This document shows, in pieces, positions 19,001 through 55,224 of a DNA stretch of 64,000 nucleotides. This stretch comes from Tricharina praecox (Eukaryota). Every line of letters starts with the position of its first letter. Positions within the stretch are counted from its first letter, which is position 1. Under the pieces are notes generated by a model. The model ran no database searches. It was not told the origin of the DNA and worked only from the letters and a program-made list of their open reading frames with translations. The DNA lies in contig NW_026250406.1 of the NCBI RefSeq assembly GCF_024521635.1, forward strand, positions 868,001-932,000, written 5' to 3'. The position numbers were made by a program, and so were the translations under genes.

Positions 19001-19056
19001 GATGTAAGATGCTATCAAATTCCCTCGATGAACCACGGCCTTAACGGAGGAAGTTA

Positions 19057-19432: not shown

Positions 19433-21294
19433 CGTCGTGGGTAACGGTGAACATGTTGGTTAGCCACACCTGCGACCTGATGTTGAATCACGCCCAATCA
19501 CGCCCAACCACTCCTTTCAAGTTTTAACTTTCAACCTACTCGATGATTGTATCATCGGTGGATAGACAGACAGATCGCTGCTTGACCTCTGACCTCTGAC
19601 CTCTGACCTCGGCCCTCCGCTAGATAGTCCATTGATTGCCCGAGTGCCATGCGGCGTACCGTCCCGTTCTCTCAATCCCGACTCCTGACTCCTGACTCCC
19701 GACTCCAGACGCCGAGTCATAACTTAGTTATACGCGGGTGCCATCTCATGACCCACAGGCACGAATAGTCATCACCAAAGCACTTGCACACCACACTGAG
19801 CACTTCAGAGTCCAGAACGATTAAACCAATATCTACAGCCATCTTATGTAGGTATGCTGTTACACACCCACACACATCCACACACAAACTCACTCACGCA
19901 CTCACTCACTCACTCACTCACTCACTCACTCACTCACCACCCAGGCAAAACAAACAAACGACCACCAACATCTCTCGTTCCAAGTTCCAAGTTCCAAGTT
20001 CAAATCAAAACACTCAGAAAAGTTCAAAACGTCCCTCCCTTCGCGCCGTTGCAGATTTGCAGATTTGCAGATTCACCATGGTCCATACTCATGCTGTCGT
20101 TCCCCCCTCCGCCCACCAATACATACAGTGAAATATAAAAAGAGCACCAAGGAAATCAAGAGAAAGGAAAGAAAAATAACCATTTCGTATCCACACCTCA
20201 TTTTCCACCCCCCCCCCCCCCCCCCTCCGTGCCAATGATGCCAATGATGCCATACATAGCAGCGCTCCCCGACCGATGAAAGATGAAAGATGAAAGAAAA
20301 TCCACCTAAAAATCCAGAAAATAAAACGCGAATTGAAGAAAATAAAAAAGAAAAGAAACCGAAAAGAACGTCCAAAGAAATCTGTTCTGACCAGTCTCCC
20401 CCGCCCCCGCTGTGTCGAATGCCAATCCCATCCAGCCCTCCTCCTACAAGCCTACAAGCCTACAAGCCCAATGCGTGAACACCTGTATGATACGTACTCG
20501 GACCAAAAACCAAACCGTGAGAAAGAGAAGACATCAAAACGGCCAGGTGACAAGTGACAAGTGCATGCTCTCAACCCTGGGCTATACAAGCGAAAGGAAA
20601 AACAACTCAAAAACAAGGGCCCAGGTAAGAGGTCCCAGCAATTCCAGTCCAGTTCCGTTCCAGTTCCAATCCTGTGGCGGGCAGTGCAGTGCATTCCTTT
20701 CCGGCGCGGAGTTCCATTATAGCAGACAAGATCCAGAATCCAGGGTCCTAGTCCGTCCGGGGGCTGGGTTCCAAAAAGGGTCCAATTTTTTTCTTTCCAA
20801 AATCCTGTATCAATGAAGGGCAGAGAAGAGGCATTCCGAAAAGAACCGCAAGGCAGGCAGGCAAGACGGACGAACGGCCTCTCCAGAGGGTATGTTCCAT
20901 CCAAGAAAACTGGCATCGTAACTGGCAATCCAAAATTGATCCAAATGAGCGTGGGTGGTTGTGTGCGGGGCGTGACTCCACCGAAAGCGCGAGGGCTGGC
21001 TCCTTCCGTCCGAAATATGGTCCAAGGTCCGTCTCCAGGAAGATCCAAATCCAAGTGGGGATAAACCATCCACTATTGATACCGAATGGTCCTCAATTCC
21101 AGGCATAAAAACAAAAACAAAAACAATAGGTTTGTCCGGCTCCATCACTCACATTAGGCATCTTCTCTTCATGGCAGGCCAAATCGTGAAAGGAAAAAGA
21201 AAAAGAAAAAAAGAAAAACGAATATCCTCTTCTAACACCCTTCCGGGTACCCGCCCCTGTACATCCACGAATCCCTATCCAGATGGTGATCGCA

Positions 21295-25203: not shown

Positions 25204-26478
25204 CTACATCTCCGCCCCCGCCCCGCCCAGCGCCCACCACCCTCCCCAAAGCACCAACACAACGCCAATCAGCACACCGCAAACACCCGCGCTCTCCGCG
25301 GCCACCATCGCAGCGCCTACCACCAGTTCCCCCCTCCTAGCAACCGCCCTTCTTAGTCTCCAGTTCTCATCGACGCCAAACGGCGGGCTCACCACCTCCC
25401 CCCCACCCTCCCCAACCCCACCTTGTATGCTAAATACGGCAAAAACAGGTTGATGATCACTCCCCTTATAACTTGGTATGCTATCATACGCCATCACCTC
25501 CAGCCGCGGCGACGGCAGGAACAGCACGCGGTCTGTCCAGCTGGGCCAGCGGTTCTGTACAAACACATCCTCCCTTCCCTCGCCCCCCTCGTCATCTGAT
25601 GCAGGTGCGTCAAGATCGTATTTATAAGTCGGCGGAAACGTAACCGGCGCCTCCTCGAGGCCGTGACAGGTCAGTCCCGCCCTACGTCTTGCGGTCAACT
25701 GATCCCGATCGAGCCAGCTGCGCCAGGCCGAGCGCGGCGTGTTCGGTGGCGGGACCTCCACCCCGAGCCCCACTATCCCCTTCGGCCGTACGTCTGAAGT
25801 GCGGTAGTTCAAGTCGCCGAATACGAACAGGTGCCCGTTGGCGGTGGTGGGGTAGATCTGCTGCACGTCCTCCTGCTCCCCCTCCTCCTCCTCGCCGTCG
25901 CCCTGCCCGTCCCCGTCGGAGGAGGAGGAGGAGAAAACGAGTGTGCGCACCATATCCGCCCAATCCCGATCGCGCCTATCCGCGGCACCCTCATGCGCGG
26001 CGAAGTGGACGGCGACGGCCGTGATCTCCACACCGTCCACGAGCAGCCGCACAGCAACAGCGCCTTTATTCCCCAGCCCCACGCCCGCGCCGCCTACACT
26101 CAGGCCTACACCCAGCCCGGTGCTCGCCCACCTCACATCGGCCACCGCCGCCGCAGAGTGCGTGGGCGTGAACGCGAGCAACGCAGTCGGCCCGACATGA
26201 CACCACCCCAGCAGTTCGAACTCCGCTTCCGCACCATAGACGCTGCGGGTTGCGGCGGATACTGCCGAGGAGAGCGCGGTGATCGGCTGGGTGAGGCGGG
26301 GGCCGCCTACGAAGCTTGCGGAGATGGGGGCGAGTTCTTGGAGTGAGAGCAGGAGTAGCGCGGGGGGTAGGGTGGGGAGAGTTGGTGTTATCGCGGCGGA
26401 TAGGTGAGTGGGAGGTTGCGGGAGAAGCGCGCAGTTCAGCGTCAATAGGTATAACGTGAGTGGGACGGGGGGTGACAT
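25204..26478 (-). CDS. Inositol polyphosphate 5-phosphatase (Inp54-like) with C-terminal hydrophobic anchor
   Basis: Motifs LSLQEL, GNKGAV, HFAAHE, FVFGDLNYR, FPPTYKY, PSWTDRVL, SDHQPV; intronless; hydrophobic tail. Confidence 0.92.
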   Translation of the reverse strand: MSPPVPLTLYLLTLNCALLPQPPTHLSAAITPTLPTLPPALLLLSLQELAPISASFVGGPRLTQPITALSSAVSAATRSVYGAEAEFELLGWCHVGPTALLAFTPTHSAAAVADVRWASTGLGVGLSVGGAGVGLGNKGAVAVRLLVDGVEITAVAVHFAAHEGAADRRDRDWADMVRTLVFSSSSSDGDGQGDGEEEEGEQEDVQQIYPTTANGHLFVFGDLNYRTSDVRPKGIVGLGVEVPPPNTPRSAWRSWLDRDQLTARRRAGLTCHGLEEAPVTFPPTYKYDLDAPASDDEGGEGREDVFVQNRWPSWTDRVLFLPSPRLEVMAYDSIPSYKGSDHQPVFAVFSIQGGVGEGGGEVVSPPFGVDENWRLRRAVARRGELVVGAAMVAAESAGVCGVLIGVVLVLWGGWWALGGAGAEM

Positions 26479-35000: not shown

Positions 35001-37021
35001 AGTTGACCAATTGATACCTACCCGTGACTAACCACGAACAGCACCACTGCAGTCACCTCGCAACTTCAGCTACATAAGCTTAAGGAAACGACAAGTGTGA
35101 CCATATCTTCGGCAGCAGTATGTATCATAGGTATTGTACATACGCTACGCATGTTAATGCGCGCATCTTCCGGGCGAGTGGTTTTTTCTTTTCTTTTCGT
35201 TAGCCTCGACTGTCAGGTGCGCCGAGCGAGTGATATCTGGTCCGAAGGCGCTGTGATTAGTCGATCGCTCCGAAACGTTAGCGTGAATGCCAACAAAGAG
35301 GATGTGCCTCCAATCTACACCTGCCTGGAGCCTTGTCCGCCCGTGCGCTTGCTGTGGTGACAGCGAAGCACGCGCTCGGGGGAAATATGTACTTACGTAC
35401 AGAGAGTATCATACCTGCCTGCCTGCGAAACTTCGTGTACGGTATTGGAATAGCTAGCAGAGACACGGCCTTTCGCAGCTGATTCGGGGGGTCGGGGGGC
35501 TAGAGCACGGTCGCTGGGCAGTGGGAATGCTTGTTTCTAGAAATTCCCCTGCAGGGACAACGCTTGATGGGTACAGGCTGTTAGCGAGCCCCCGGTAGCC
35601 CCCTTTCTCCATGTGTTCTGGATGTTCTTTTTTTGCTACGTTTATTAATACCCGACACATGTATACCCACATGCGGCAGGCTTCTAGAAGCAAGTACACG
35701 TCTTCGTTTGAGACAGAGTGCCCCGCCGAAGTCGCCTTTCCGTCCATCATGGGGGGAATGATGCGGTTGTCCGAAGGATCGGAACAGGGCAATGGGTGTA
35801 AGTACTGTAACAGCTGTCCGGTAGAAGGCATTATATAGTTTGGACAGTCTTCTCTGCATGATCCAGATCTCCGATGACCATCCCGTTCTGCACGTGGCGT
35901 GATCTGTGTAGTGCCGAGGAAAGGGTTCTTAAACCTCATGGCTCCCCACGGCCTTTGCGTCATTCGCGACTTCTTCTTTTTCGAAGCCTTTTCAAACACC
36001 CCCCCCCCTCCCAAGAACCCGGAGCCTCAGGCCTTGACCGCTCACCGCGAGTTTTCACTCCGGGCTGCTTACGGTGGCCTTTGTACAAGGAAGTATGTAC
36101 CCTTCGGGAAAAAAAACGCCTCACGGCCTCAGTCGCACGCACCCGGCCAGTGGCTAACTGCCCCGCAGAAAGTACCTAGATTCCGCATCAACACAACAAC
36201 ACCAAAGGCCGCCGCCGTCTCTGGCGCCCATCACTGAGGATAATCGCCACTGCCTTAACCGTTTTTCGGAGGCCGGGCTTTTCGATTTCGGATCCGCGAT
36301 TTCGTCGTGCGCACTCGACCCTAGCCCTGTGGGTGCAGCAGGCAGCCCAGCCACCTCGAAGACGACTGAGTGCACCAGTTGCACCCACAGTGATGCAAGC
36401 CACATAGATTCAGACTCCGCTCGAACTCTCAGAAGCACTTCACTTCAAGGCATCCACGACCACGGTGTACATCTCCGGGGCTTTGGAGATTAAAAACATC
36501 TGGCTGCTGGGCGGGCACTTTGGCTTCGCACTGACGCCATCCCCGTCGGCTATCTGTCATGGCCGCCTGTAATTGGTCGATTGAGCTTGGGCGGGTCGAC
36601 AGCACAGCAGAAGGGGGGGATATTGTTCCCAGGTCCGCAGGTCTGTCATGATGTCAATGCGTTGAAATGCCAATAAAAAACAAGTGCTGACGTGAAGCAG
36701 TGCAGTGTGAACATCAGGGAGAGATCGATAATAATTATTGCCCAACAAAAAATCCCCCCCGCCCCCCCATCCCCCTCCCAGAAAAGCAAACAAAGAAAAG
36801 AAATAAAGGAAAATACACCGTTGAGGAAACCAAGCTTCGCCCCGTCTAGCCACGCAACGCCATAACCCCCGGAGATCTGTGGAAGGAGAAGGAGAGAGAG
36901 ATCTAATAGAATGAACGCCGCAGAACACCAATGGCCTTTGGGCCAAATCCAAAGGCCGTTTTTAATTCCAAGCATCGGGGTTATCCCACCACCCCTCTCC
37001 TCAGATCAATCGTGGTGGCAG

Positions 37022-37279
37022 TTATTTGCGGAGGTACTGCTCGTCGGGAGTCTCGTGACGCTCGCAGTGGTCGCAGAACTCGTGGCCGCAGTCGTGGCAT
37101 TGGGTTTGTACGCTGAGGCACATGGGTGGTCCTCGGTTTCCGTCGCGGACACACACATGGCAGAACCAGATGTATTCCGGACCGCCGGGGGCGTCGAAGT
37201 TGCTGTGGGTGGCAGCCGGTCCGCCATATCCGCCGAGGGTGAAGCCCTGGGATTGATGCGAAGCGTGGTGAGAAGCCAT
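37022..37279 (-). CDS. Small putative double-zinc-finger protein, copy 1 (85 aa, intronless)
   Basis: MASHHASHQ...YIWFCHVCVRDGNRGPPMCLSVQTQCHDCGHEFCDHCERH; ACAATG start context; TATAAG at 37472-37467. Confidence 0.75.
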   Translation of the reverse strand: MASHHASHQSQGFTLGGYGGPAATHSNFDAPGGPEYIWFCHVCVRDGNRGPPMCLSVQTQCHDCGHEFCDHCERHETPDEQYLRK

Positions 37280-40200
37280 TGTGCTATGGAATGTATGTGT
37301 GGGAAGTTTGTTTTGCGGAGTGAAGGTGGTGTCTGTTTCCACAAAAGAAGTTAGTCTGTGAAGTGGAAGCCAGAGACCGCTCGGGAAACTTACTGGAGGG
37401 TTGGATGTGTTTGGGAATGCTCGCTTGAGTTGGTATGGGGATGGTATAGAGCATGGGCTTGGGAGTCTTATATTCAAATATACTAATACACGAAGCCTCG
37501 TTCTGATGGCACCGCCTAGTCTCGACATCATCGCACCGGCGGTGGGCAAGCACGGAGGCATACGGGATAGGAGGTGGAAGCGGTTGGCCGTCTCATTGTG
37601 GTCATCGAAGGCCGTAGTACACCTGGGTGACACATTTTCCAAACTACTCCTTCTACGATTTCACTGGTGAAGCTGCTGACGGAAGGTAAGATCGCGAACT
37701 TTTTGGGGAATGCAGTTCACTCAATCGTTCCCAACGGTGGGACATGTTGTTGTTGGGGGCAACCTCCGTCCTAGGCGGACTTCGGTATAAGCTACTCGCT
37801 GGGCTGCTATGCGCCTCCAACGGAACGCTTGCGGTGATTAGCAGCTAAGTAGACCCGCGTCATCCTCAAGCACTGACGTGCGGAGTGGCTTTCTAGCGAG
37901 CAGCGACTGTTTCAACGTCCACCGATGTGCTCAATCGATCGACCTTCAGATGTGTTCATTGGGGGAAGCGTGGAGTTCTCGGAAACTTATGGTACGGTTC
38001 GTGCACAGCATCCGTTGTTACTAACATTGCCTCGGGTAGCACGCCTATCGCGTTACGGGCCTTCTTTTGGAGTAGCATAGCGGACTCACTGACCTGACCT
38101 GATCCTTTTACCTCTCTCACGTGCAAGTTCTGATAGGTTCGTTGAAGCTATTACTCCTACAGTTATTCCTGTGTGCCAAACTAACGCAGTTCGCATAGAT
38201 TTGTTGAAGTAGCTCTGAGACTGGATGAGGTGGCTATCTCTTCCTCCTACTCCTCCTACCCCTCCTCCGTTTCATCATTTACAGACGTATGACCTGAGTG
38301 ACCGAGCATTGATAGGATTGAACATGCCCGGATCAACTCTGAATTGCACGAAGGATTTCTGCTTGATTCGTACCGCTTCGCTGCGCAGGGCCCCACATGG
38401 ACCCTGTTGGGCAGCAAGCGAACACTTTTCGGTTCCAATTGTGCAGCACTCCTGCTCACAGTAGTCACATCCATCAATGTCACCACGATCCACTGGGAAA
38501 GAGTGGTTCACCTGAGATATGCTATGAGTGAAACGTTCACGAGGAGCAGCCCGCGGATTGGAAAGGCTGTGGTCACATGTTGGGCCACGCTACGGGATAC
38601 AACTTCAGTGATCAATGGTAGTGCAGCTCGTATGGTTGCAAGTGTACGCCCCAACAGAAAGCGAGTCCGATGGCAGCTGAAGGAACCAAGTTCTCTGTAG
38701 GTTCAATGTCATTTAATCTCCCAGCCTGTGCAGCCAGCTAACCATCCGCCACTCGATATAGTCTTCGGTTCGGCACCCGAAAGACTCATGGATGATTGCA
38801 GTAGGGAGTATTGCATCAGCACCACCTGGCATTGTTCACTGGCTGTTATAAATACATATCATTCGACGGGAAAGGTTGGAGACGAACCGATCCGGCAAGG
38901 ATGGACAGGAATAAGCACAAAACTCAATCGCAGCCCGAAGTGCATCGGGGGGGCCGTTCATGGCTACTATAAGACCGTTAAGGCAGCATGGTATTGCGGT
39001 TGGAATTGCCAGCAATCGTCTACTGGGCGGAGTGATCTGTACGGCGGTATCTTATGGTCTCTCTACCCCCATTCCTCCAAAGTCTGAGCATCACCGCGAA
39101 CGGCAGAAAATGGGTGTACTCCCTAGGACGGCAATGGGTGGCAGGCTCGCTGGGAACCTACGGCCCTGGAGGAGATGTCCTAGCAAGCGAGAATCATCAT
39201 CATCGTGCCCCAGGTGGACGAGATCAAGATCTGCGGGTGAGCGGGGGGGAGGCGGCGTGATGGACCCACATGATCTGGGGTGGATCCAACCAAAAACCCC
39301 GTGGATAGATAGTATGCCCCTTCTGACAGGTTAAAGGTAGCTGGAGTCTGCTCTACCAAACATGCACGCCTTCGGCACTCCGAGGCGTATTCTCACTATT
39401 CGGCAGTGAGGGCAGATTTGACGCCGACGGGATTGTCTTTCTCACCGTTCAGGCTGTAAAAGCACATGCTAACTATGGCTTGGGCTGCATCGACCTTCAC
39501 ATAGATATCCGCGCGGGCAACTACGTACAGATTTTAAATTTTTTACCATGTTTCTGGCGTAAAATGGTAAGATTATACCCATAGTAATGCCAACACGTGT
39601 GGCAGGGTCAGCGATGTGTTGTCCTAAGGAGAGGGTCGAGGGTTTACCTTACGCCACCGCAGAGTGGAAACGACTCACCAGGCAGGCAGGCTAACCGACT
39701 TCGCCACAATGAGGCTAAATGTACGGTCCACGAGTGGAGAAAATACCCACGGTTTCAGAGTCCTCCTAAGGGAAATCCCGCCAGCCAAAGGCCAGAGCCT
39801 GAGGAAAAAAGAACAAGTGCCCCCCTCTGCAAACGAGAGTTGAGAAATCATGTGGGCGCACGAATTCGGAGGGGTGTTACCCCCTCCCCCCAGGCTGAAA
39901 TTTTCCACTTGCGGTTAGGTTAGCCCCTGCCACATTACATGCCTTCTGCCTTCTTCCTTCTTTTCTTCCTTGATCACCTCGACCTCGTTTTCTTTGCACG
40001 AAATGAAGCTATCGTAACCAAACCAAAAAGGGCAACGAGAACCGCAACACACGGATCCGGCAATTCGAAACGGAGATATAATCTTTATTTTCGCGCCGAT
40101 TTCATAAAGAAATAAAAAAGAAGACAAATTGTTTTTTTGGTCTTTTCCAACGGTCTTCGATCTTTGCAACTCGCCGCAACAGGAAAGCACAAGAAAGCAA

Positions 40201-40453
40201 GAAAGCCAGAAAACAAGAAAGCAAGAAAGCAAGAAAGCAAGTACTGGGCGGTCACCAATCATAAATCATAGAAAAAATATCGTTCTCGGTCATGCTGTCG
40301 TTGAATCGATCATGGTAGCCGGACGGTAACTGCAGCGATGTCACACGGCACCGGTCAGTTACAACTTCCAGGAATTGGCCATGCAATGGCAAAATATGGG
40401 GACGACGAACACGTGCTACGGTGCGGACGTACGTAGGTAGAGCTCGGGGCCTT

Positions 40454-40846
40454 CTACTCGCCAACATTCTTGCATACCTTGCAGACCTTGCACGGCTGGT
40501 GGTTGCCTATGTGCACCGACGGGCGTCAGTCAGATTGGTTCCTGTTCGTTATGGACTCCCACAGAGCTCGGTACATACACTCGGGGCACGACGGCTGGCG
40601 GTCGAAGTACCACGGCCCGGCGGAGTGGTTGACCATGCCGTCGGGATTATGGCAGATCCATGCTCCCTGCTGCTCGGACTGCTCGGAAGACCGTCGCTCA
40701 GACCGCTCAGACCGCTGGGGCACCGCGGCCACCGCTGAGGATGGCGTCGCGGCCGGGTGGGAGAGGATGTCGATCGTGAGGAATTTCTGGTGGAGTTAGC
40801 TGGTTGTTCGATGAGTAAAGGCTGGGCGGGGGCTCACTTTGTCCAT
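40454..40846 (-). CDS. Small putative double-zinc-finger protein, copy 2 (89 aa); exons 40846-40838, 40786-40579, 40506-40454
   Basis: Introns GTGAGC..CTAAC..CAG (51 nt) and GTATGT..CTGAC..TAG (72 nt); splicing removes a stop and completes WICHNPDGMVNHSAGPWYFDRQPSCPECNHQPCKVC; TATAAG at 41060-41055. Confidence 0.78.
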
Positions 40847-42483
40847 TGGAGAAACTTGGGCCGGAGGGTTGGGTGTTGAGAGTGTGGTATGTGAATGTGT
40901 ATGTGTATGGGCTATCAGTGGGCCTGAGGAGTAATTGTTGCGAGTGGAGTAGGTATGTGTATATGTATGGGATATAAGTTGAACTGGAAGGTCGAATTGG
41001 CTTCTGTCGTGCTATGGTCTCCGCAAAACCAGGAGGAAACGGTAATGACAAGATCTTATACTGTTGAGAAACCCGAGATCTGAATCCCCCTTCCCCCCCT
41101 CCTCCTCCCGACTTGAAAGAAGACTGGAAAAGCACATCTCTGGAGGTGAATCATGAGGGCTGATGGGCGTGAATTTGCCCAGCCAGCCAGCCAGTAGTAT
41201 TATTCTTTTCTCTCTCCTGCCAAAGCCACGACGACTATGTAAGTATGTACATACTATCATGCCCCGAGTAGTCTCCGAATCCCAACTGCGGTTACGGGAT
41301 GCCCCCCTCCAAGTGAGTACAGAACTCGTTTCAGGCGAGCAAGGCAAGGCAAGGCAACATCTGCCACCCGCCGATAGAGAGAGGTATCCCCTCTCTCTGG
41401 CGCTTTATCACTTATCACCGCGTCATAGGCCTTCTAGTCAAGCGCTGGTAGAGTTGGCTTGTGATCATCGATACTCCATATCTGAGCGAGAGACACACAC
41501 ACGACCTGCCAGGTTCGGGTTCTGGCTCTGGTTCTGGGCCAGGGATTTCTTCAGAAGCACACCGATGTGTGCATACACGATCCGGAACCCGTTGTGTATG
41601 TACAGGCCCCAGGCCAACGGACTCCCGCTCCCCCCTCCGCATCTATGCACGGATGCATTGCTCTTAGGAGATTTATGTATTAGGTTGGGTTTGGTGGGGT
41701 GCGGTGGTAGTGGGGGAGGAGGGGGGTATCAGTACTCTAACGTGTGTTGGGCCAAAAAGCACTATGTATGCTCCACATAACGACCATCCAGGGTAGAAAA
41801 ACTTCCGTTTCATTGGTACCTGCGCTGCACCTCTACTAGGTTAAGTTATGCATGAATTTTTGCCGAGGAAGAAACGCCTGCCTGCGTGCTGCAGATGCGA
41901 TTGGCGGCCGGGGCCCGGTATATACGTTGTCGCTCGGTCGATCAGTCAGTCGGTGGGTCGGTCGGTCACGATAAGTTACTTACTGGTAGTTATTGCTGCC
42001 TTCGGCTATGTACAACTCAAGAGTCTACATTTAACTATATACCGTATTCGAAGCGTAACCGGGATAGTTTGGCCAGGCACGGAGTGTGCTCGGATGGCGC
42101 TATCCGATGGGTGCGGGCATGATTGGTTCGCCAGCCGAACGGGTGCGTGAATGTACGCAATCATTGTGCTCCTAGCCTCACGCTTGTGGTCTGAGGAGGT
42201 TGTTGAAGGAGAAGTGGAGGAAGTGGCTTGCGAAAGAGAAGAACATGTTTCTCTCTCTATCCACCGGACGAACGATTCATCGTTGCGGAAATCGCTGGAG
42301 AAAAAAAGAGCTTTGGAAAATGCAACGAAAGGGCATGTGAAACCCGATATGATCATGAACTAGGTAAATATAAACACATAGAAAAGCAAAGCAAAACATA
42401 ACACCTCCAAGACCAGCTTTAAAACCCCACAACCCGCAAATGCAACACGAATCAAATATCAAAACAATAAGCCGAACTCCGTC

Positions 42484-42870
42484 TCACCCCCATATAACCT
42501 CCACCGAGCATTGTCCGCACCGAGCGTGCCCGCAATCGATACAAGCCGCGACTGTAGCGTACAACCAAGGGCCGGCATAATGGGGCGACAGGCCGTGCGG
42601 ATTGTGACAGTACCAGTAGTTCTCTGGGGTCACTCGGTTGTTTTGGGATAGTTGAGATAGGTGGGATACGGATGCGGTGCAATCGATAGCGCAGTGGGTA
42701 TTGGTGATGTGGTAGTGCTCCTCGGCCGCCGTGATGTCTTTAGTAGCTTCAAGGTGCTGGGGGGACTGAAATAATGGGTCAGTTTGGATTCTTCGGCCAG
42801 TCTTGAGGGTGGTTTCTCTGGATGCAGTCTTTACCTTCTTGGTCTCGGGCGTGCCGTAGTGGGACGTCAT
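42484..42870 (-). CDS. Small putative double-zinc-finger protein, copy 3 (128 aa, intronless)
   Basis: C-terminal YWYCHNPHGLSPHYAGPWLYATVAACIDCGHARCGQC; TATATAAG at 43067-43060. Confidence 0.78.
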   Translation of the reverse strand: MTSHYGTPETKKVKTASRETTLKTGRRIQTDPLFQSPQHLEATKDITAAEEHYHITNTHCAIDCTASVSHLSQLSQNNRVTPENYWYCHNPHGLSPHYAGPWLYATVAACIDCGHARCGQCSVEVIWG

Positions 42871-45800
42871 TCTTGAGATGTAGAGATGTAGAGATGTAGA
42901 AATGTGGAGATGCTGAGTGGAGTGGTGCGAAGACTGGTGGGATTGGTAGAGGCGTCTTCCGAGCTCTGGTATATCGGCAGGGACTATGGGTCTCTGCTGC
43001 GAGTGAAGACTCGAGATGGCTTGATGAAGTTCGAATCAGTGAATACGGCCCCCTCCGAACTTATATACATCAGGACGTCGTCCTTCTCAGGAGCATACGG
43101 AGCAGACGTTTCTGACGGCCTGGAGATCATCCAGCGCCTTCTAGCAGCACAAAATCCCCCCAAGCGGGCATTCACATCCAATGCCCACGAAACAAAAAGC
43201 GGGCATCCAATGTAAAGGCACACTGGGTTCTTCCCGCGCGCGGGGGGTTCGATACTATGTACATACATACGTATGGATGGGAGTCATTCCGGATTCCACA
43301 CTTGCTGCGGACCTTTGTGCGCCCCGTAGCCCACTGGATGGGCTGGGGGTGCTCAGTGAGTAATGTAGGATTCAGGGCCTGCGGGCAGACGCTCTTTGCG
43401 CCCTTCCTCCCTCCCCTTACTCGACCCTGCCTGATATCACCCCAGACAGCCAATAGGCGAGAGCGAGCTCAGCGAACGACTGGTCCCCTCGCCCAGTCCA
43501 AATCCCTTCCCATAGCGTTGAGTCCGCACATTATTGTGCTATTGTTGTTGTTGAGGGGAAAAGGGACGTACTACTATAGACAACGGTTGCATATGAAGCC
43601 TCCATTGGGGGGACCGGTTTTCGGTGATCCGTCGTAATCATTAAACATGCGAGCAGGTTCGCAGCGTGCGCCCGTTCATCCGTCTCCTTCTCCCCCAGTC
43701 CCTCCCCCGTCCCGCCTCTTAAGTCAGAGGCACAGAAGTCTGCAGCCCCACTAAGCGCGTTGCAGCTCTAGATCGAGTGTCAACCACGGTTTTATCCGAG
43801 CGCCTGGCATGCATCATGATTTCACTTCACTTCGGTAGAGCATGATGTAGGGTTCGCACGTGAAACCCCTTTCCCCTCCCCGCAACCCTAAAAGCACTCC
43901 CAACTTTTTTTTCCTTTCTTTTTCTAATGATCACGAAGAGAGTTGATCGTCGCTGCGTTCCGGGGGCTCAGTTGGTTTCGCTGAGCCGACGTAGGTTGGC
44001 AACCCACCATTGCGGGTAGTCTAGCCGGCTTTGGACATGTGTTTGTAGGTTTTGTATGCACGCACAAATTAGCACCTTGAAGGCTTAACTGGCTTCACGT
44101 GTGAAGGGCGAGGGAAGGCGACGCCCCTAAAACAATGGGAGTCAAGGTGACGTCTCTGCAGTGTTCTCCGTGTAGATGCGCATACATTCCAAAGATACTC
44201 TGCTTACATCCCAAGTACTTGGTTCCTCGGGTCTGCGTATGATAATTTGGAATATCACGGGGCATCAGGGTTAACTATAGCATAATAGTCAATAGTGCTT
44301 TTCGCATAACATCACTCTATTCTCCTACTCACAACTCTGGTCGGGGTGCAGCCTTACGGCTATTCCGACGTCGGTTGAGGAATCCATCCAGTGGGGCACT
44401 TATGAATCATGATAACTATACGGCACACGCCGCGCTCGACCCCAATCCGGCAGAGGCACAGTTCGTTTTGAAACGGCCTTCTCCACTGAACAGCCCATTT
44501 CATACGGCGGAGGTCGTATGTACGCATGGTATACGTCTGTACGGGAAGACGGGTAGACTCCTGGAGATCTCAAAGCACTGCACCCTCCACCAACCACGGT
44601 TGCCTGGGCTATGGAGTTCGGTCCGTTCATCTACCACGCGATTCGATTCCGTAGCGACTGCCTGCACCTCCCCTTCCCCTCGCCATCTCCGCATGACGGC
44701 AATGATCACGAGTACAAATTGGGGAAGGCTATGTAGGTATCCGGGGGGTCGGAACCACGGACATTGCGGGTGGTTGGGCTGGAGCGTTCCATCGAGTATG
44801 GCATCCAATTGCTCAGTTCGGCACAACGAGATAAGGAACTTTCGGTTTCCGTTCATGACTGAGCCAGAATTTCTATCGGATCACCTCCGCACGTTCTCTA
44901 GCATCATCACGACTTTGGTGCGACTAGGTAGAAGTTCGCGGAGAATTGACCTTGTTCTTAGCTATGGATGTACCTACTAGTAGAAGCACAGAGCCCGAGG
45001 GCAGGAGAACAGGATGAAACGCCTTTGCTGTTACTAATACTTTCCACTGCGGTTGGAGAACCAGCACCTCGGGCCGTACTAGTACGCATATTCATACCAC
45101 AAATAACTTCCTTCGCTACCCTCATAAGACAATTGACAACTTCTACGAGGAATTACTGATCAGCACCTCCACCGTTCTCCCTGCCATAACCCCCTCTCGT
45201 CTCGATTGGTCCAATCCGGTAACTACAATAATGAACAACGCACAGTGTGGCTCAGTCGCTGCGCACCGGTTATTACCCTAACCCTGAAAACCAACGTCTT
45301 ACAGAATCGTCAAATGCAAACGGCCTGTCTTGTTTCTTTATTTTGCCCCAAAGAAAGTCCGGTCTCTTGGGGAGAGCGCATCGCAACATCTGTCTCACAA
45401 GTAATCTCCTCCTGCCTTACTACGAAAAGTAGGCACTAGTTAGTCAAGTCCTACATACTTCGCTGGCAGTGAATATACCCTCCCCCGCCTCCATTTGGCT
45501 GGCTCAACGGTTGTGTGATGGTTACTCACCGGCGCGGAACAACAGATCATTGCATATTCTATGTGCGCATTGCCCGTCCGCCCGCCCGGCCGTCCGGAGG
45601 CTTGCCTTTCAGCTTCGAGAACACGAGTTTGCCAGGGCAGCGAAGGGGGGAGGAGGAGGCTAGTTACCAGCCACGATCAACAAGGCTACCGGACCAGCAC
45701 TGTTGTGTTGTCATCCGTGGCGCAATTATACCTGACAAAAGACGTTGGAACCGTTGAACCTACCTAACGTACCTACGCGGCGAGAACCGACACAGCTGAA

Positions 45801-46416
45801 GTTCCGCGCAGTGCGCACCCAAATCTATTATCTCATTCCCTTTGGTTTGGTTGGGACCGTTAAGGATCGCTCATGGATGATCAGTCAGTCAAGGCTACCG
45901 TAGTATGTACATAGTAGCCCTAAGGCGAAGGGAGGGGAAGAGGGATCGCTCCGGTTGGAGAAGCTCATTTGGGGGAATGACCCCTTCATCTTCCTGTACT
46001 TTGTCACTCTGTTTGAGTGGGACGTGGCTGTCAGCGGTGACGAGCTGTCGAGCCGGCTTTCATTAGCTGTTACAAAGGCTTTCGCTCCTTAAGAAGACCT
46101 GAAGCCCCCCCTCGGATATGGCTACCTCCAAACGTTACGGAGGAATCTCCAACTACCTCCAGGAGTGGCGGTCTCCGGTACTACTGTTATCAGTGACTGA
46201 TATTCTTCGACGGGGATCCTAAGAAGCTCGATTGGTTCTGGCCTACCATCACGGCTACCAAACTATTAGTCGACACGAGACGATCGGAACAATCTCCGAG
46301 AGCGCACATAAAACGGGCACATCGAAGCCCTTTCGGTGGACGATTCCAGTCTTCCATGCACCTACATACAGAATATCCCTCACCGTCCTTGAGACTCGAG
46401 AGCCCATAGTGTCGGG

Positions 46417-46952
46417 CAGGGCTGTCAACCGTCCGTCCCGTCCGTCTTTGAGATTGCCCGGCCCGGGACGAAATTAGTCGGGCTGAGGAGACGAAGGACT
46501 ACAGTCTTCCGGGCTGGAGAAATGAGGACGGATACCCTACAGGGCCTGGAGAGTAGTCGGACACTAAGAAATTCCTTGGCAGCGGCCGGAGAAAAGGTTT
46601 TTACCCGTATCCCCCAAGCCTAGCCGAATCCCATTTTCCTCCCACCGGCAAACCCAGCCAAATCCCATTCTCACACCGACAAGTAAACCCACCACCGAAA
46701 ATCCAGCACGCCGAAAAGTTCTGCTCGGCGAAAAATTCTGCTCGGTTGCCGGTGGCCGCCGGGCCATTACTTTGTAAACTAGCAGTCAGCATTGTACGCT
46801 AATGTTATCAGGTACCTATAGGTACCTGGCGGGTATCCGGGCATTTCATCCTCCGGACGGAATGGATCAGTCCTCTGGAAAGCCTGTCCGGGACGGGACG
46901 GGACTACAGTCCACTAGTGGACTGTAGTCCGGACGGACGGTTGACAACCCTG
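46417..46952. mobile_element. Non-autonomous hAT-superfamily DNA transposon (MITE-like), 536 bp
   Basis: 22-bp TIRs CAGGG(C/T)TGTCAACCGTCCGTCC at 46417-46438 and 46931-46952 (1 mismatch); identical 8-bp flanks GTGTCGGG at 46409-46416 and 46953-46960; no transposase ORF. Confidence 0.9.
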
Positions 46953-48191
46953 GTGTCGGGCCCAGCCGGGCATACAAAAAGTTCCCTCTCCCTTCAGCAC
47001 CCTTTCCACAAAGCCCATCTCCTCTCTTAGACGGCCGCACTATAGGCAATCACCTCCGTCTTCAACCTACCCCGATAATAGTGAAGGCAATCGCTAGTCT
47101 GGACTGCTGACTCGCAGTCAAGACGGACGTGGACGATTAGTGTGAGCAGACTATTTACCTCTACCTTTGCCGAAGCGTCGTTACGGTGACTACTCCCTTC
47201 CTCTCCTCCCCTCGACGAACGTTGACCATTACCACTGGCATCTCAAGATCGTTAACTGCCCACTCAGTACATACAAACCACAGCAAAGCCGTCCTCAATC
47301 ACATCCAGTATCGATACCTCGGCGTCCCTATCCGGCCGTAACACCCCACTCCCGCCCCGACTACCACGCTGACGCATCGAGTATGCACCAATCCACACCT
47401 CCGCACCTCCATACCTACTTCACATGTCTACTGTCTACCTCTCCAATCCAATTCAATCCAATCCGATCCGATCCAACACCAAACCTAGGTAGGTACCTAG
47501 GTAGGTCTGAAAAGTTAAGGCAATCGACCGTCCAGAATTCTGAATACCTACAGACCACAGACCCTGGGTCCGGATTCCGGAAAACAGTGCTTGTGGCCCA
47601 GCGAAGCCGGCGGAGGTCGGTTGAAGCTGCGACTGACGGTAGGCACGGATGGTAGTTGCGGTACTACTACGGTACCTACCAGATATGATGCTACGGTTTC
47701 GCTATCCGTCCTGCCTCATCCCAGTCTGGGACTGTAGCGGATGTCCGCCAGCACGATGCGGGATGGTTGGCAGCCATCACAGTCATCACAGCCATCACTC
47801 GGCTCCATCCTCCATCCTCCATCCTACCTACCTCGAACCACGAACCTCAAAGACTTCTCCGCTTACAACGTACTCATACAGCCATACTCGGCTTCTCGGC
47901 TTCGAGCGCCAAATGCAGATCTACTGTATCATCTACCATCCACCATCTAGCAAGGCTGCCTCGTATCGTAGAGTCGTTGCCCCGTATACCCACTCCCAAT
48001 CCCAATGCATCCACTATGTACCTACATGATGTACCTATCTAAGTACCTATATACATCGGCGAGTCCCGGTCATCACGGTTATCAGTTATACAGGGCTGTC
48101 TGGAATGGATTTCCGCACGCTCAGCCCTTCGACTCTTCGAGCCTTCGTCGTTCGACAGCCTCGAGGCTGTCGATGTCATGCCATGTCAGAG

Positions 48192-48283
<92 letters not shown>

Positions 48284-48284
48284 C
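48192..48284. repeat. (AAC)31 perfect microsatellite
   Basis: Uninterrupted trinucleotide run of 93 nt. Confidence 0.97.
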
Positions 48285-48558
48285 GGGTACAGGTCATAAC
48301 GTCATAAATTTTCTCCTCAGCCGCCGCTCTCAGCCGCCCCCGCTCCCGCCCCCGCCGCCCCCGCCGGCCCCGCTCCCACAGATCTCCATAGCTCGAGCTA
48401 CTCTACACTACTCTACTCTACTACTCTATCCAAGTTTTTCCGATCTAGTTCTACACGCTCTGGTTCTAAACGAAACGAAATGAAGGGCAAAAGAGAAACG
48501 AAACGAAGGACAAAAAACACAAAACAAAGGCCGTGTAAAAAGCGCAAAGAAAAAAAAC

Positions 48559-48606
48559 AGAAACAGAAAACAGAAACAGAAACAGAAACAGAAACAGAAA
48601 CAGAAA
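48559..48606. repeat. (GAAACA)n hexanucleotide microsatellite in an A-rich tract downstream of zinc-finger copy 4
   Basis: About 8 tandem units, slightly imperfect. Confidence 0.85.
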
Positions 48607-49472
48607 AGCAAACAAAAACAATCCAGAAACAAAATAAAATCCCCTCCCGCCGCCGCCATCATTTCAAGTCAAATCAATTGTCAGTCTAATCCCCTCGCAC
48701 CTCGCACCTCGCACCAACCCCGAGAAAACAAACCAAAAACATAAAGCAAAAACATAAAGCAAAAACATAAAGCAAAAAAAAACGTAAGGAAATATTCCGG
48801 GCTACCCCTCGCGCGTACAGACGCATCATGCCCCCAAAGCAAAGCAAAGAAAGCCATCTACCTGATATGTTTTTGTGATGGAAACGTAGAAAACGCAGGA
48901 AATGTAGACAAATAAACCGATAAAAGGGAAGTAATAGCAAGCAAAAATAAAAAATAGAAACAAGATTAGAAACTGCGCAACAAGAAAAAGAAGAAAAGAA
49001 GGGGGAAAAAAGGAGGAAACCGTGGAAGGGAAAGGGAAAAGGAAAATCTAAAGTTTTTTCTAGTTAAACGTGAGGTAGAAAACGCAATGGTGTAAAGAAA
49101 ATGCAGCGGATAATGAGAAAGAAAGAAAAAAACAGAGGCTAAATCGATCAAGTGAATAAACGGAGGAGAGAGTGTGAAACAAGCGGAAAATAAAAGGAAA
49201 AAAGGAAAATAAAAGGAAAATAATCCAAAGCATGGAACGAGTGTGAGTGGGTGAGCCACGATCCGGGCTATGGGGCCTGCATGATGAGGGCAGGTATATA
49301 TCCCACCACCCAGGCAGTCACCATTCATCCCAAGATTGTCGGATGTCATGCGAGCCACCGTTACACGAAACCCAACCCAACCCAACTGCACACTCCGATC
49401 CGATCTCGGAGTAGATAGAGGCCTCGATCCCAGTCAAAGCGCCTCGGAAGCGCAAGGTGATTGCAGGCTCGC

Positions 49473-49975
49473 CTAGTAAGCCTGGCCCGTCGAGTAGGTC
49501 TGGCAGTTTAGACAGTGTCGGTGATTGCAAGACGGCTCGAGGCAGACGGAGGTATTTGCGAGCAACCAGGGACCGCCGTAGTGATCACGGGTCTGGAATG
49601 CTCGGCAGCAAATCCACATCATCTCACTTCCCGAAGCGGCATGGCCTTCGTTGATGTCGGTCTGGTCATCCGTCGTTTGCTCGCCGCCGTGGCTCCCGGG
49701 GCGCTCGGTCCGTGGTGGCTGCGCAGCGGGTTGAATGTGCGTTTGTTCACTGCTATTGTTCCGGCCGCGGCCCATTCGGGGCAGGTCGGCCGAGTACACA
49801 GGGTGACGGTCACCACCGTGGCTGGGAACGGCCGCAATTCGGGCGTTGAGCTCATGGAACTGGAAAGGAAGGATGATTAGTATTATAACGGTATAAGATA
49901 TGGAGGGATGGATGAACATACCGAGTCTTGGCGGCCGGAGGCACCGTTGGAAGAGGAACCTTTTCCGAGACACAT
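49473..49975 (-). CDS. Small putative double-zinc-finger protein, copy 4 (146 aa); exons 49975-49922, 49859-49473
   Basis: ATG at 49975 (MCLGKGSS...), phase-0 intron GTATGT..CTAAT..CAG (62 nt); C-terminal MWICCRAFQTRDHYGGPWLLANTSVCLEPSCNHRHCLNC; TATAAG at 50197-50192. Confidence 0.8.
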
Positions 49976-52900
49976 GGCGAATAAAGTGCGGGTGGTGGGG
50001 TAGTGGTAGTAGTGGTGGTTTGTATGTGTGTGGGGCGTGGAAGGGAGGTGAGAGGTAGAAAACGATGTCTTAGATTGAGGAGGCGGAGGGATGGTGATAT
50101 ATCTTCGTACTTGGAGTGTAGCTGGTGGTGATGCTGGTGTCTGTGTCTGTGTTGGTGGTGAGAACAATTGAAGCGGCGTTGAATACGGGTTCTTATATCC
50201 AGCAGTATCTTCGGCCTTGTTGACTCCTTCAGACCTCCAAAGTGGTGCAGCCCCACAAGTACAGCTTGCAGTGCCACAGGGAGCACATCTTGTCAACAGT
50301 AGATACGGAAAGGGCGTGCTCGATGCCCGCAACCGACGTTGTTTACCTGAAGAATAGTGTGCGAGGCCGGAGCACCAGTATTGCACGCCCCAGGTACCAC
50401 TTGGTCCAAGGACACTAAACCTCGAGACAGTAAGACCGGTTTTAGGGCCGTTCCCCAGAAGGAAACTCTTTGACCGTAACGCTGAGAACCTTCTGTCCCG
50501 CCCCGCCGCTGACCACAATCTGGCGCATCATATGCTTTCCGCCCCAAGAAGTGCGGTATCAAGTAGCGTGGACGGCAGCCGCCAAACTCAATGTGTCATC
50601 GAGAACGGCAGAGAGCACCGCCGCCGCAAGAAACCTTTAGACACACAAGGCCGAGGCAGCCAGACCGCCGATGGATCCTCCTCATGGCACACCCAGCCTA
50701 CGCTAGGAGATCCAGCCCTCCTGGCGTGTCGGTTGCTGGCGAGCAGGTTGGATGGCCCGGGCCCAAGCATAAGGTAGTTTTCAAAGCGGCAATAGATCTC
50801 TGGCTTTAGGCAACAACTGGTGCATAAGCACAAGCTCCAGACCGTGGGATGGGATGAACGGAATACATCCCCCCAGGATGCTACTTGTGTGAAGATAGGT
50901 ACGGCGCGCTGGTAGCTGCTCCCGCGCACCACAAGGTCGCAAAGAGAAAAGTGCGCAAACCAAGTAAGAAGCCTCGGTAGTAAAAGGTATGCGGGATCGC
51001 CGTGAACTGAATAAAGGCGTGCTAGTCAGTATTGATACTGCACACCGCACACCGCACACCGCAGGTTGTGTTGTGGACAGTCTTGCCGTTGCAGCCTTTG
51101 AGAAAGCCAACTGTTTTTTTCCTCTTTCAAACGTCAGCATCGAGTAGCTGGAAAAGGATATCATAAAGAAAGCATGCATATAACAACAATGATTCAACCT
51201 TGTGGTAGGTAACACTGGTAGGCAGGTACGGCACCGGAATGATGCCGAACCACTGCACCAACCATATTTGAGAAAAGGATCTCGGTTCATCGATCAGCTA
51301 TGCATACATCCATGGGGGTGGGTGGGGGGAGGGGGGGCGGGGCGGTGAGCATTGATGGGGAATGAATCACGGAGAAAATCGAACGGCTGGGCCGGTAGCT
51401 GGAAACAGACAAGCAGTAGAGACACGACAGGTACGGCAGAAACAGAGCAGAGAGCGAGCAGTGGCCGTGATCAGCCTTGAGCTGACCGAATGGTCACTCC
51501 CCTCGGGAAGTCACCAATCAAATTGCGCGCACGCAGGGGATGCTCTGCGCGTGATTTCTGCACTGCCAGTCCTAATTAGTTAGATCCCACAAGGCTGTCT
51601 TTTTTCTTCTCCTTAGCCCAAAAGGGAGTGGGGCCCACAGAGTCTCGCGCTTGCACTGCCCTGTCAAATACCTGGTATGATACCCCGAAACCGTTCGAAG
51701 CACGGGAATTCCCGTCAAATCCCGGAGGATAAACTCTGACACGAAGCTTGGTCCCTCAGGGCGTGATTCCCGCAAACATCTGGCGACGTTTTGGAAAGGC
51801 CCCGTTTGAGCTGATTCGCGGCTGTGCCCGTTGCGCCAGTGTTCGTGTAACCTAAGCGGTAGAAGTGCTACCGGAGGTCGATGTGACACAACGATATATC
51901 TAGGGGAGGAGGCAATGCTGTTGAATTGAGGCTTGCGGATACGGTGCGCGAGCACTCAGTGGGCGTGGCATCGTAGCGAGGAGTTTCCAGGAAAGAATCT
52001 TGCTATGTGCACCACTGTCGTCCCGTTTCTGCACTTACCATCCAGGCAAGAGCTTCGAGGTTGTGTGCAGTACCAATTCGGGCCCTTAGATCCGACCCCG
52101 CACCAGATGGAGCGGACATCAACCAACCTGCCAGGCCTAGGAAGGCTGCCATGGAATTAGGCTTCAGACCGCGATGAGTGGTGAGAACTGCTCGTCATAT
52201 CCGCACACGTATGATGTCTCGGTCGGTCTGGTTGTTTGCCGCCCTAATTGAAGGGCCTTCCAATCGATAATCTGTTTCGGTGAGCACGCAAGCGCCTGAA
52301 AGCGGTATTTAGCGGCTCGATCACGGCAGCCGAGCAGGCAAATGACAGCAGCCGAGCAGGCAAATGACAGCATCCGAACGCCGCAGCCTCGTTTCGTGGG
52401 ATAGTTATGGTTGTCGGGACCTCGCCCGCGCTGATAGAGGCTAGGCCGTCTCTATCCGTTCCTTGCAGTCTCCGAAAAACGGTCTCCAATGCGAAGCCTG
52501 GTGTCAGAGCCGCAAAATGCGAAGCCTGGTTTGCTGCGCGCGAGCATGTTGTCACATGGTTTGTTAATGAGAAGCGCTAACAACGTCATATCCACAGCAA
52601 CGATGGATCCAAAGTCAGTAGGTAAGTGCCTACATAGCTGTCATAGAGAGGAAGCTAGGTTGCGGGAGCTCGGCGGCGCGCTCAACCTCCTGCCAGAGCA
52701 CTGTAAGCCTGAGCGCCTCACGGCGCACTGGAGGTAATGACTGCATGGCACGCACAGCTTTCGGAGCCGAAGCCGCACAGCAGGGGCGGCATCGTAGGCA
52801 CCTATGTCCACAGCGTTCTATGCTCGCCGTTAGTTTGGTGAACGTTTGCTTGCAAGTCGAGAGAGCACTACACATGACAGCGTGGCGCTAGGGTCCGCAG

Positions 52901-53668: not shown

Positions 53669-55224
53669 ATGGGCGCGCATCGTCGAACTGCCAACGTCTG
53701 GGTTGCTCGATCCATGCCTGTTCTGATGGCCGGGACCGTGGGTTTTGCGACCTGGGTGTTCCTCTCGTTGGTCTGCGGTAAGTTCTCCCTCGCTCCTCGA
53801 TACAAACAAAAAAGAAAACTCTTAATCGCGCGGTCGCTGACGCGGATCTTCTCAGTAAATCACCTGCTCGTTCGACAAGAACGAACGGCCACAGCGGCAA
53901 TACTCATCACCATCTATGCCGTCTTGCTTCTCCTTCTCGCGACATCGTACCTTCGAACCGTCGTCACCCTGATCGTCAACCCTGGTTACGTACCAAAAGG
54001 CCCGCCAAGAGACGTTGAGCCGCCGAGTCGCCAGCTGCAACTCGACGGTGCGGAAGATGGATGTTCGGAGACGGGCTCAAGAGACACCGCTGCACCTGCG
54101 TCTGTCAATTCCACCGAAGGGCTCTCGTCGCCCCCTCTTCCACGCCCACTGGCTGTGGCTGCGGCGCCGGACAGGTTGTCGGCGGATCCGTCCGATCCAG
54201 TACCACAAACGCCGAACTCGACCACGCTTCTGAACCCACCATCGCCACATCTGTCGCCCTTACCCAACGCCAGTAACGGCGTGCAAGGCAGACCTTACAC
54301 GCACAATTCTCGACCGCATCCAGACGCCGCTCCTTCGAATCTGAGAGACTTCCTCGACAAGGAGATATTTGTGTGTGAGGGCGACGGCCTTCCTCGATAC
54401 TGTAGCAAGTGCAACTGTTGGAAACCGGACCGATCCCATCATTGCTCCGAGATCGAGCGCTGCGTCTGGCGGATGGATCACTTCTGCCCTTGGTATTTCG
54501 CGAAACACTTCCCGAGGAAGCATGAGTGCTGATGAAAATGAAGGGTTGGAGGATGCGTAGCAGAAACGAGCTTCCGGTACTTCTTTCAGGTTGTCGTGTA
54601 CGGCATGCTATACTGTCTCTGTCTGATCGTGTCCATGGGAGTCATCATGCGCGAAAGGAGTAACAATGGCGACAGCATGGATACCAAGTGGCTGGCAACT
54701 CTTGTTTTGTAGGCTCCATCCCTTTCTTTGTCCAGGACCGAAATCGATCTCTGTCAGTCGCTGACATAAGGTGCAGGGCGTGTATCTTTGGAGTATTCTC
54801 GGCTGGCATGGCACTCTCCACCGCGCAGTTGATCGTCCGCAACCTTGGTACTGTCGACTCCCTTTCGGCAGAAGCGAAAGTGTACCAGCTTGCGATCCAC
54901 GACCCGAATCCTCCAGTGAATAACCCAGATGCATACAGGCCTATTGGCCCCCGCGTGTGGCTGCCGGTGAATACAGCCCCCGGAGAGTCGCAAAGGTGCT
55001 TTGCAATCGTCCGGACGCAGCCCGGGGAAAATCCATGGATGTGCGACTCCACGTACGAGAACTTCTGCTCGGCCCTCGGCGGCGGGTTCTTGCAGTGGTT
55101 TGCGTTATCGGGCGTCCCGAAGCCCGGGAGTACTGGTGGGGAGCGTGGGTTTTACCAGTGGAATAACACCATCATTGCAAGGCTCAAGAAAGAGGTGGGA
55201 ATACGAAACAACGAAAAGGCGTGA
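53669..55224 (+). CDS. PFA5: DHHC-family palmitoyltransferase, PFA5-like (DHFC variant); exons 53669-53777, 53856-54492, 54544-54708, 54777-55224
   Basis: Cys-rich domain [36 protein letters not shown]; four hydrophobic segments; C-terminal PGENPW; three canonical introns. Confidence 0.88.

Follow-up and report, generated by a model that had tools for sequence, protein, structure and literature searches.

The closest described systems to the proteins considered here are the RanBP2-type and NZF zinc fingers, ribbons that start with W-x-C, carry a second knuckle C-x2-C and are found at protein termini. Two sources give the RanBP2 signature as W-X-C-X(2,4)-C-X3-N-X6-C-X2-C (PMC12383448, PMC7154859), and the former describes a Thr-Phe pair after the second ligand as critical for ubiquitin binding by NZF domains. 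Here we describe a module that has the start, the second knuckle and the terminal position of these fingers and differs from them in its ligands. It is encoded by four co-oriented small genes on the minus strand, at 37022-49975 of a 64,000-nucleotide stretch of the Tricharina praecox genome (contig NW_026250406.1, positions 868,001 to 932,000 of the forward strand; hereafter the window), each with a module of the form W-x-C-[CH]...C-x2-C-x-H-x2-C-x2-C:

37022-37279, minus: copy 1 coding sequence, 85 amino acids (aa), module 37168-37064, W-x-C-H-x-C knuckle kept with a long loop behind it
40454-40846, minus: copy 2, exons 40846-40838, 40786-40579 and 40506-40454, 89 aa, distal-His form of the module (defined below)
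42484-42870, minus: copy 3, exons 42870-42835 and 42765-42484, 105 aa, distal-His form, AlphaFold model with a mean predicted local distance difference test score (pLDDT) of 91
49473-49975, minus: copy 4, exons 49975-49922 and 49859-49473, 146 aa, distal-His form, begins Met-Cys

An earlier reading of the letters alone (the sequence-only reading) had proposed four minus-strand genes of 85, 89, 128 and 146 aa that end in the same motif and lie 1.6-6.6 kb apart. All four are where it placed them, with intergenic gaps of 3.2, 1.6 and 6.6 kb (copies 1-2, 2-3 and 3-4) and the first Trp codons of the modules at 37168, 40660, 42615 and 49616 on the minus strand. Three of the lengths stand as well; the 128 aa of copy 3, however, came from reading through an overlooked in-frame 69-nucleotide (nt) GT..AG intron (42834-42766), so that this gene has one intron instead of none and encodes 105 aa. 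The remaining intron numbers (0, 2 and 1 for copies 1, 2 and 4) hold for copy 4, while copy 2 may have a third intron (40477-40330), which, with the donor at 40477 and an alternative last exon at 40329-40252, would give 107 aa. The copy 2 motif is completed by a 72-nt intron with canonical ends, as had been claimed: a public protein, P0001, is spliced at the same place, and the orthologues in L003/L004 (L-numbers denote metagenome loci) are intron-less. Both orthologues of copy 3 have an intron directly behind the start codon. The N-termini are unrelated among the paralogues, as proposed, but partly conserved among orthologues, most clearly in copy 4, and no signal-peptide-like hydrophobic N-terminal stretch was found in the array proteins.

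A six-frame scan of the window gave four matches to the terminal pattern C-x2(4)-C-x-H-x2-C-x2-C, all on the minus strand (copies 1, 3 and 4 and a copy at about 61 kb), and the full module pattern has four unspliced matches (copies 1, 3 and 4 and the copy at 61030) versus none in 150 shuffles. The exact spacing shared by copies 2-4, searched as a DNA pattern, matches three times, versus 0 of 100 shuffles with any match.

Ordinary annotation was expected to miss these genes, and it does: the four array genes are unannotated or mis-annotated, gene callers either missing or fusing them. A five-motif profile searched over 1.84 billion representatives returned 40 proteins at an expectation value (E) of 0.001 or less, one of which, P0013, is an unrelated repeat protein. 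The top match, P0001, named by its source a Tricharina praecox hypothetical protein, starts as copy 3, stops inside the copy-3 module and finishes as copy 2, using the copy-3 intron, the acceptor of copy-2 intron 1, the motif intron and the further copy-2 intron; this public model thus fuses two genes. The exact sequence of copy 1 is absent from a 15-billion collection. Word-index searches, a method insensitive for so short a module, gave no candidate for copy 1 and 11 proteins for the motif alignment, 10 of them already known.

The copy 2-4 spacing, used as a DNA pattern, led to 41 metagenome loci, of which 24 (from 16 contigs in five assemblies) were confirmed by the profile; the other 17 were dropped as chance matches, 16 having no profile match and L009 a weak partial match only. 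Among the confirmed loci, two other fungi carry all four genes in the same order (copy 4-3-2-1), orientation and spacing, in agreement with the proposal of an old local expansion. The array in L023/L038 (GC content 0.58) lies on one strand with steps of 5.4, 1.9 and 3.6 kb and adjoins DHHC and GCR1_C genes; that in L004/L013 (GC 0.46) has steps of 6.4, 2.1 and 2.9 kb and is followed by orthologues of the window genes at 28703-27655 and 26478-25204. The corresponding steps in the window are 7.0, 2.0 and 3.5 kb. Modules at the same position are 44% (L023/L038) and 47% (L003/L004) identical to the window for copy 1, 58% and 68% for copy 2, and 57% and 62% for copy 3, and the copy 4 orthologue P0006 (L023/L024) has a 61% identical module with exon 1 and the intron position conserved. 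Between different array positions identity is 21-42%. The closest copy is the same-position copy for copies 1-3 in both other species and for copy 4 in one of the two. When the window is compared with L013, only the module-bearing frames align convincingly. The ratio of non-synonymous to synonymous substitution rates (dN/dS), a check that the sequence-only reading had called for, is 0.26-0.31 in the 5 of 12 orthologue pairs with finite dS, dS being saturated in the other 7 (40-44 codons each). The array genes are therefore mostly one-to-one orthologues under purifying selection, and the order preserved in the two other fungi points to a separate job for each gene.

The flanking genes are as syntenic as the array, so the conserved order may simply be inherited. 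Shared promoter 7-mers, moreover, are not above control in the 12 array genes (best 8/12, control maxima 7-10). Of the claimed "clustered system", the order thus stands in all three species, and it is too early to call the array a coordinated cluster; local duplicates retained within a block of synteny are the best reading.

The proposed eight conserved Cys/His positions are borne out, all eight being kept in 11 of the 12 array genes. To describe it more widely we used 69 distinct modules, which comprise all proteins and loci fetched and are biased by the queries used. The second ribbon ligand is only a Cys (W-x-C-[CH]-x-C) in 32 of these and only a distal His, 10-12 residues before the next knuckle, in 34; one module has both, and the two with neither have a distal Cys. 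This exclusivity was not imposed by the search, since the DNA pattern fixed the His but left the Cys position free. The commonest spacing from ligand to knuckle is 12 in both forms (24/34 and 18/33). Copy 1 and its kin keep the Cys with a longer loop (17-21 residues; 17 between the knuckles of copy 1), a pattern that would fit insertion into the loop followed by passage of the ligand role to a His. The module probably binds zinc, and structural alignments and spacing suggest two sites. Putative site 1 would comprise the Cys of W-x-C, the C-x2-C pair and the second ribbon ligand, which is the CxxC Cys in copy 1 and, in copies 2-5, a His that precedes the next knuckle by 12 residues; putative site 2 would comprise the Cys or His right after the first Cys together with H-x2-C-x2-C. 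The net charge, thiolates not counted, lies between -2 and +1 in 58 of the 69 modules (mean -0.5), and in 46 an acidic residue (Glu or Asp) precedes the fourth ribbon Cys.

AlphaFold predicts a compact fold with strands at both module ends (copy 3, pLDDT 91 and predicted template modelling score 0.72; copy 1, 81 and 0.61). Both models align over all of the Npl4 NZF (1q5w, 31/31 residues, root-mean-square deviation (rmsd) 1.9-2.0) and of the TAB2 NZF (7e62, 30/30, rmsd 2.0-2.4). The MDM2 finger (4xxb) is a neighbour of both, and RBM5 (2lk1) and a Ran-binding finger (2gqe) are neighbours of copy 1; RanBP2/NZF alignments as a whole cover most or all of each 30-32-residue finger at rmsd 1.9-3.0. 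The Z scores of the overlaps with 1q5w, 7e62, 2lk1 and 2gqe are only 2.1-2.3. The module differs from RanBP2/NZF fingers in its usual spacing (12, not 10), in a Gly-Pro-Trp near the place of the Asn and in four extra ligands, which suggest the second site; copies 2-5, moreover, lack the second ribbon Cys of the four-Cys single-zinc set and have the distal His instead, while copy 1 has all four Cys but with 17 residues separating its knuckles. PF00641 gave no Pfam match at E ≤ 1 for the window copies or for 31 aligned members, no Foldseek match was better than E 6, and nothing fell under E 0.37 in a sequence search of solved structures. We conclude that the module probably folds like a RanBP2/NZF ribbon and yet is not a member of that family.

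A probable double zinc ribbon of ascomycetes, PF26652 (Zn_ribbon_double), is an Atlas feature neighbour of copy 1 (0.83) and of the related protein P0026 (0.81), in a listing that is an all-eukaryote, mostly ascomycete cluster; these scores are below the 0.9 bar and make it a lead only, and three unnamed ascomycete clusters outscore it for copy 1 (0.89-0.90). The local Pfam scans did not show PF26652, which may be newer than the copy used, and literature searches for it or for double zinc ribbons in fungi gave unrelated papers only. P0026 itself scores 0.95 with a 110-member ascomycete cluster auto-named RanBP2-type, possibly its own cluster. IBR, FYVE, B-box and RING halves have the C-x2-C-x4-C-x2-C spacing seen in the C-terminal half of the module; their weak Pfam matches (E 0.0018-0.8) stay below curated cut-offs, in at most 2 of 31 members and over the last 20-40 residues only, and none of these folds was listed in wide structure searches. 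The eS27 zinc ribbon supplies the top structural rows (Z score 3.0-3.2, 43-45 residues aligned, rmsd 2.7-3.3), at a Z far below the tool's meaningful level, with 9-19% identity and no common ligand pattern shown. Metallothioneins are Cys-rich throughout and have no folded aromatic core; the array proteins have just 6-7 Cys in 85-146 aa, almost every one at a set position of the module, and they combine a conserved Trp with a compact model predicted at good confidence.

The module is spread across filamentous ascomycetes. Members occur in Trichophaea, Thermoascus and Penicillium, Eurotiomycete proteins included, and some modules end larger proteins; the module is not confined to the four-gene array. 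Among 50 database proteins, 45 have a single module and 5 have two or three under a strict rule, and the last module is no more than 30 aa from the C-terminus in 36. A fifth motif in the window is the C-terminal domain of a long protein, not a microprotein:

60821-63176, minus: copy 5, module 61030-60926 near the C-terminus of the 747-aa protein P0041, outside the array

This protein has no Pfam match; in its relatives P0005, P0010, P0019, P0024 and P0034 a common conserved region precedes the module, a sign of a domain not yet named. Elsewhere a module closes a series of collinear exons that also encode a ULD_2 ubiquitin-like domain: it stands at their 3' end as a copy-4-type module in L036/L007/L030 and as a copy-3-type module in L005. 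The ULD_2 match passes the Pfam cut-off in L005 and L036. In L036 and L007 the ULD_2 exons follow a helical N-terminal frame that has no counterpart in Pfam, and in L028 a shorter frame with the same start precedes the module; these starts are presumably HeLo/SesA-like. Three copy-3-type modules make up a second array (L028/L029/L041; variants occur in L010 and L017), and a copy-2-type module is dispersed (L001/L031/L040); transposon, NACHT and ankyrin fragments surround both. The last module of the second array (L028/L041 19021/9992, L010 15083, L017 9992) differs markedly between versions, one of which resembles the syntenic copy-3 gene, while the surrounding contigs are 93-98% identical, suggesting gene conversion or allelic diversity.

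We give a probability of about 0.55 to the reading that the array encodes small intracellular protein-binding adaptors with different partners, members of an old tandem family built on a RanBP2/NZF-like variant. The four genes would be paralogues formed by tandem duplications that predate the split of the three fungi examined. Each would produce a small intracellular protein consisting of a disordered polar tail and a folded module of about 36 residues, a RanBP2/NZF-like zinc ribbon with an added second metal site, and this module would serve as a portable domain for protein binding that presents a zinc-stabilised surface from a disordered tether. Each copy would then act, under its own TATA promoter, as a small adaptor or competitor without catalytic activity. 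The module's occurrence at the ends of unrelated proteins, its neutral-to-acidic surface and conservation of the loops suggest protein binding with different partners; because the paralogue-specific loops are kept across species, each copy probably has a partner of its own or works under its own condition.

Several results weigh against parts of this reading. None of the 69 modules matches the RanBP2 signature, and Z is only 2.0-2.3 for NZF/RanBP2 chains, lower than for the eS27 ribbons, which makes the link to the RanBP2/NZF fold weak. The copy-4-position gene of L004/L013 has a module 36% identical to copy 4 and equally 36% to copy 3, although, as we read the sequence, it has the Met-Cys start and the intron behind codon 17-18 in common with copy 4. 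In L023/L038 the H-x2-C-x2-C of the copy-2 orthologue could not be recovered and a start codon is missing from the corresponding place, so in one lineage this paralogue or its second site is dispensable. The module tree strongly supports only 1 of 18 branches, and we therefore claim no order of duplications. The comparative loci all come from five related assemblies and probably represent few species. The ULD_2 fusions, finally, are our own reading of collinear exons in which small exons are unresolved, and their models are predicted, not transcript-verified.

Of the alternatives, the one that survives best, though we consider it improbable, would make the stand-alone proteins decoys or adaptors for the larger ones (those with helical domain, ULD_2 and module, and the 747-aa copy-5 family), competing with them for the same partner and tuning a stress or non-self response. 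By analogy, CARD-only and PYD-only proteins act likewise on inflammasome components. Two paralogue types end one scaffold type (behind ULD_2, the copy-3 type in L005 and the copy-4 type in L036/L007), and further copy-3-type genes lie in the second array among transposon and ankyrin genes, varying between near-identical contigs. However, the window holds no ULD_2-module fusion, the helical N-terminal domain has no Pfam match and the fusion models are predicted; ULD_2 scaffolds may also take up many unrelated tails, in which case the fusions may reflect capture of nearby genes. One source lists zinc fingers among the commonest non-canonical C-terminal domains of Sordariales NOD-like receptors and discusses them as possible decoys (PMC12258605). 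In its fullest form, equally improbable in our estimate, a conserved, co-regulated set of module-only regulators, four specialised two-zinc recognition modules of which three have the Cys-to-His swap, would control larger proteins in which these modules form exchangeable C-terminal tails behind a helical effector-like domain and a ubiquitin-like domain. If this were true, it would reveal a layer of signalling not yet described in filamentous fungi and similar in design to the domain-only decoys of animal innate immunity, and a regulation of fused by stand-alone proteins would give fungal biology a new signalling module; otherwise the RanBP2/NZF ribbon would still have gained a new binuclear variant, and a gap in annotation would have come to light. 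In either case the locus adds ordered orthology in three species, a Cys/His ligand swap and a link to ULD_2 genes. Since its four paralogues can be matched to orthologues across three species and include a Cys-to-His swap made by nature, it is a tractable test case.

We also think it unlikely that the array is a by-product, a set of redundant duplicates in a gene-poor block that are weakly selected, slowly decaying and without paralogue-specific roles. The damaged copy-2 orthologue in L023/L038, the equal synteny of the flanking genes and the extra copies that come and go among transposons in L005, L010, L017 and L028 would all be expected of such a history. All four positions, however, persist although synonymous sites are near or at saturation, with dN/dS of about 0.3, position-specific loops and, in all but one of the 12 genes, every ligand position, which speaks against decay.

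The sequence-only reading had also offered nucleic-acid binding, ubiquitin binding and metal handling, none of which fared well. Four small RNA regulators binding single-stranded RNA or DNA, as the ZRANB2, FUS and RBM5 fingers do, would be a rather remote prospect. The copy-1 model aligns to the RBM5 finger (30/30 residues, rmsd 2.2, Z 2.2), and the conserved aromatics (the first Trp and the Trp of GPW) could stack on bases, but the neutral-to-acidic charge disfavours it, the RanBP2 Asn and spacing are absent, and a single module is the rule in database proteins; with this RNA-binding subfamily only the charge and the Asn were compared. Binding of ubiquitin or a ubiquitin-like fold is similarly remote in our judgement, even though NZF chains are among the structural neighbours and the module stands behind ULD_2 in predicted genes. 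The residue before the fourth ribbon Cys is hydrophobic in NZF domains and acidic in most modules here. The Thr-Phe pair described as critical in PMC12383448 occurs in 0 of the 69 modules, which speaks against binding of the canonical NZF kind, though a different surface might bind. Least likely of all is metal buffering or redox sensing, with zinc or copper stored or sensed and not structural, for although the genes are small, TATA-driven and rich in Cys and His and share an upstream TGTGCT found after the fact (see below), the low Cys content disfavours storage and the compact predicted fold with its conserved Trp and Gly-Pro fits structural zinc better than a metallothionein.

As to published work, the absence of a described function holds so far: no paper on the module or its motif was found, in searches outside which most subscription papers and all supplements lie, and RanBP2-type zinc fingers did not occur in any of the fungal papers listed by the search.

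The remaining features of the locus are as follows:

25204-26478, minus: flanking phosphatase gene, Pfam Exo_endo_phos2, syntenic in L004
27655-28703, minus: conserved gene that flanks the array on its downstream side, 63-64% identical over about 213 aa to its syntenic counterparts in L004/L016, no Pfam match in the local copy
37333-37393, minus: predicted intron-like element in the 5' untranslated region (UTR) of copy 1, with a counterpart in both orthologous genes
37467-50197, minus: a TATAA[AG] box upstream of every copy (box starts 37472, 41060, 43065 and 50197)
50169-51234, minus: non-coding conservation upstream of copy 4, about 1.08 kb at 67% identity to L023/L024, with indels that break the frame
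53669-55224, plus: flanking DHHC palmitoyltransferase gene, which we take to be PFA5-like after the earlier reading, divergent from copy 4, syntenic in L024/L033

No kinase family was matched among 18 frames of the window or among 49 selected proteins and flanking frames, the latter including 32 of 169 long frames chosen by eye.

Expression, the other check that had been called for, could be followed for copy 1 in two of four sequencing runs (X1 and X2), which cover the stretch, whose RNA nature is a guess and one of which may be the source sample. Their contigs skip the plus-strand GT..AG introns 37627-37690 and 38697-38761, so the runs include spliced molecules. Copy 1 is covered at 99% identity or more at 36768-37439 (X1) and 36853-37403 (X2) by contigs that give neither strand nor level and that read through its 5' UTR intron-like element unspliced. 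The coding parts of copies 2 and 3 have no cover or junction in these runs, and copy 4 lies beyond a long repeat that bounds the part covered, which is not evidence against their expression. The contigs thus give modest support for transcription, and of copy 1 only. Between copies 1 and 2, a spliced plus-strand product (37495-39000) has no long frame, and parts of it can be aligned in L023; it starts about 55 nt from the end of copy-1 cover, as from a two-way promoter.

A TATAA[AG] box lies 257-632 nt upstream of the module in all 12 array genes of the three species. The hexamer TGTGCT occurs at most 160 nt upstream of this box in 8 of the 12, with all four paralogue groups represented (background 0.05-0.10 per window, best control 6-mer 4-6 of 12); this is an after-the-fact find, and the orthologues are not independent. 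The conserved stretch at 50169-51234 is possibly a long UTR or a non-coding RNA, and a conserved branch-point and acceptor-like motif lies within it near 51020 (minus). No Rfam family was found in 28000-64000.

The Met-Cys start of copy 4 (exon 49975-49922) is common to the same-position genes (L023 17751; L004 1204), and, given the divergent DHHC palmitoyltransferase neighbour, one might guess, but only guess, that copy 4 is lipid-modified. A small MITE-like element (miniature inverted-repeat transposable element) at 46417-46952, between copies 3 and 4, has 22-nt terminal inverted repeats 492 nt apart. A long trinucleotide run (48190-48290) and a degenerate hexamer-like repeat (18930-19450) give rise to spurious Cys/His-rich or Thr-rich frames. 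In L004 (12478-12755), the 5' UTR segment of the copy-1 orthologue, including the intron-like element, is duplicated in tandem (about 140 nt, 94% identical).

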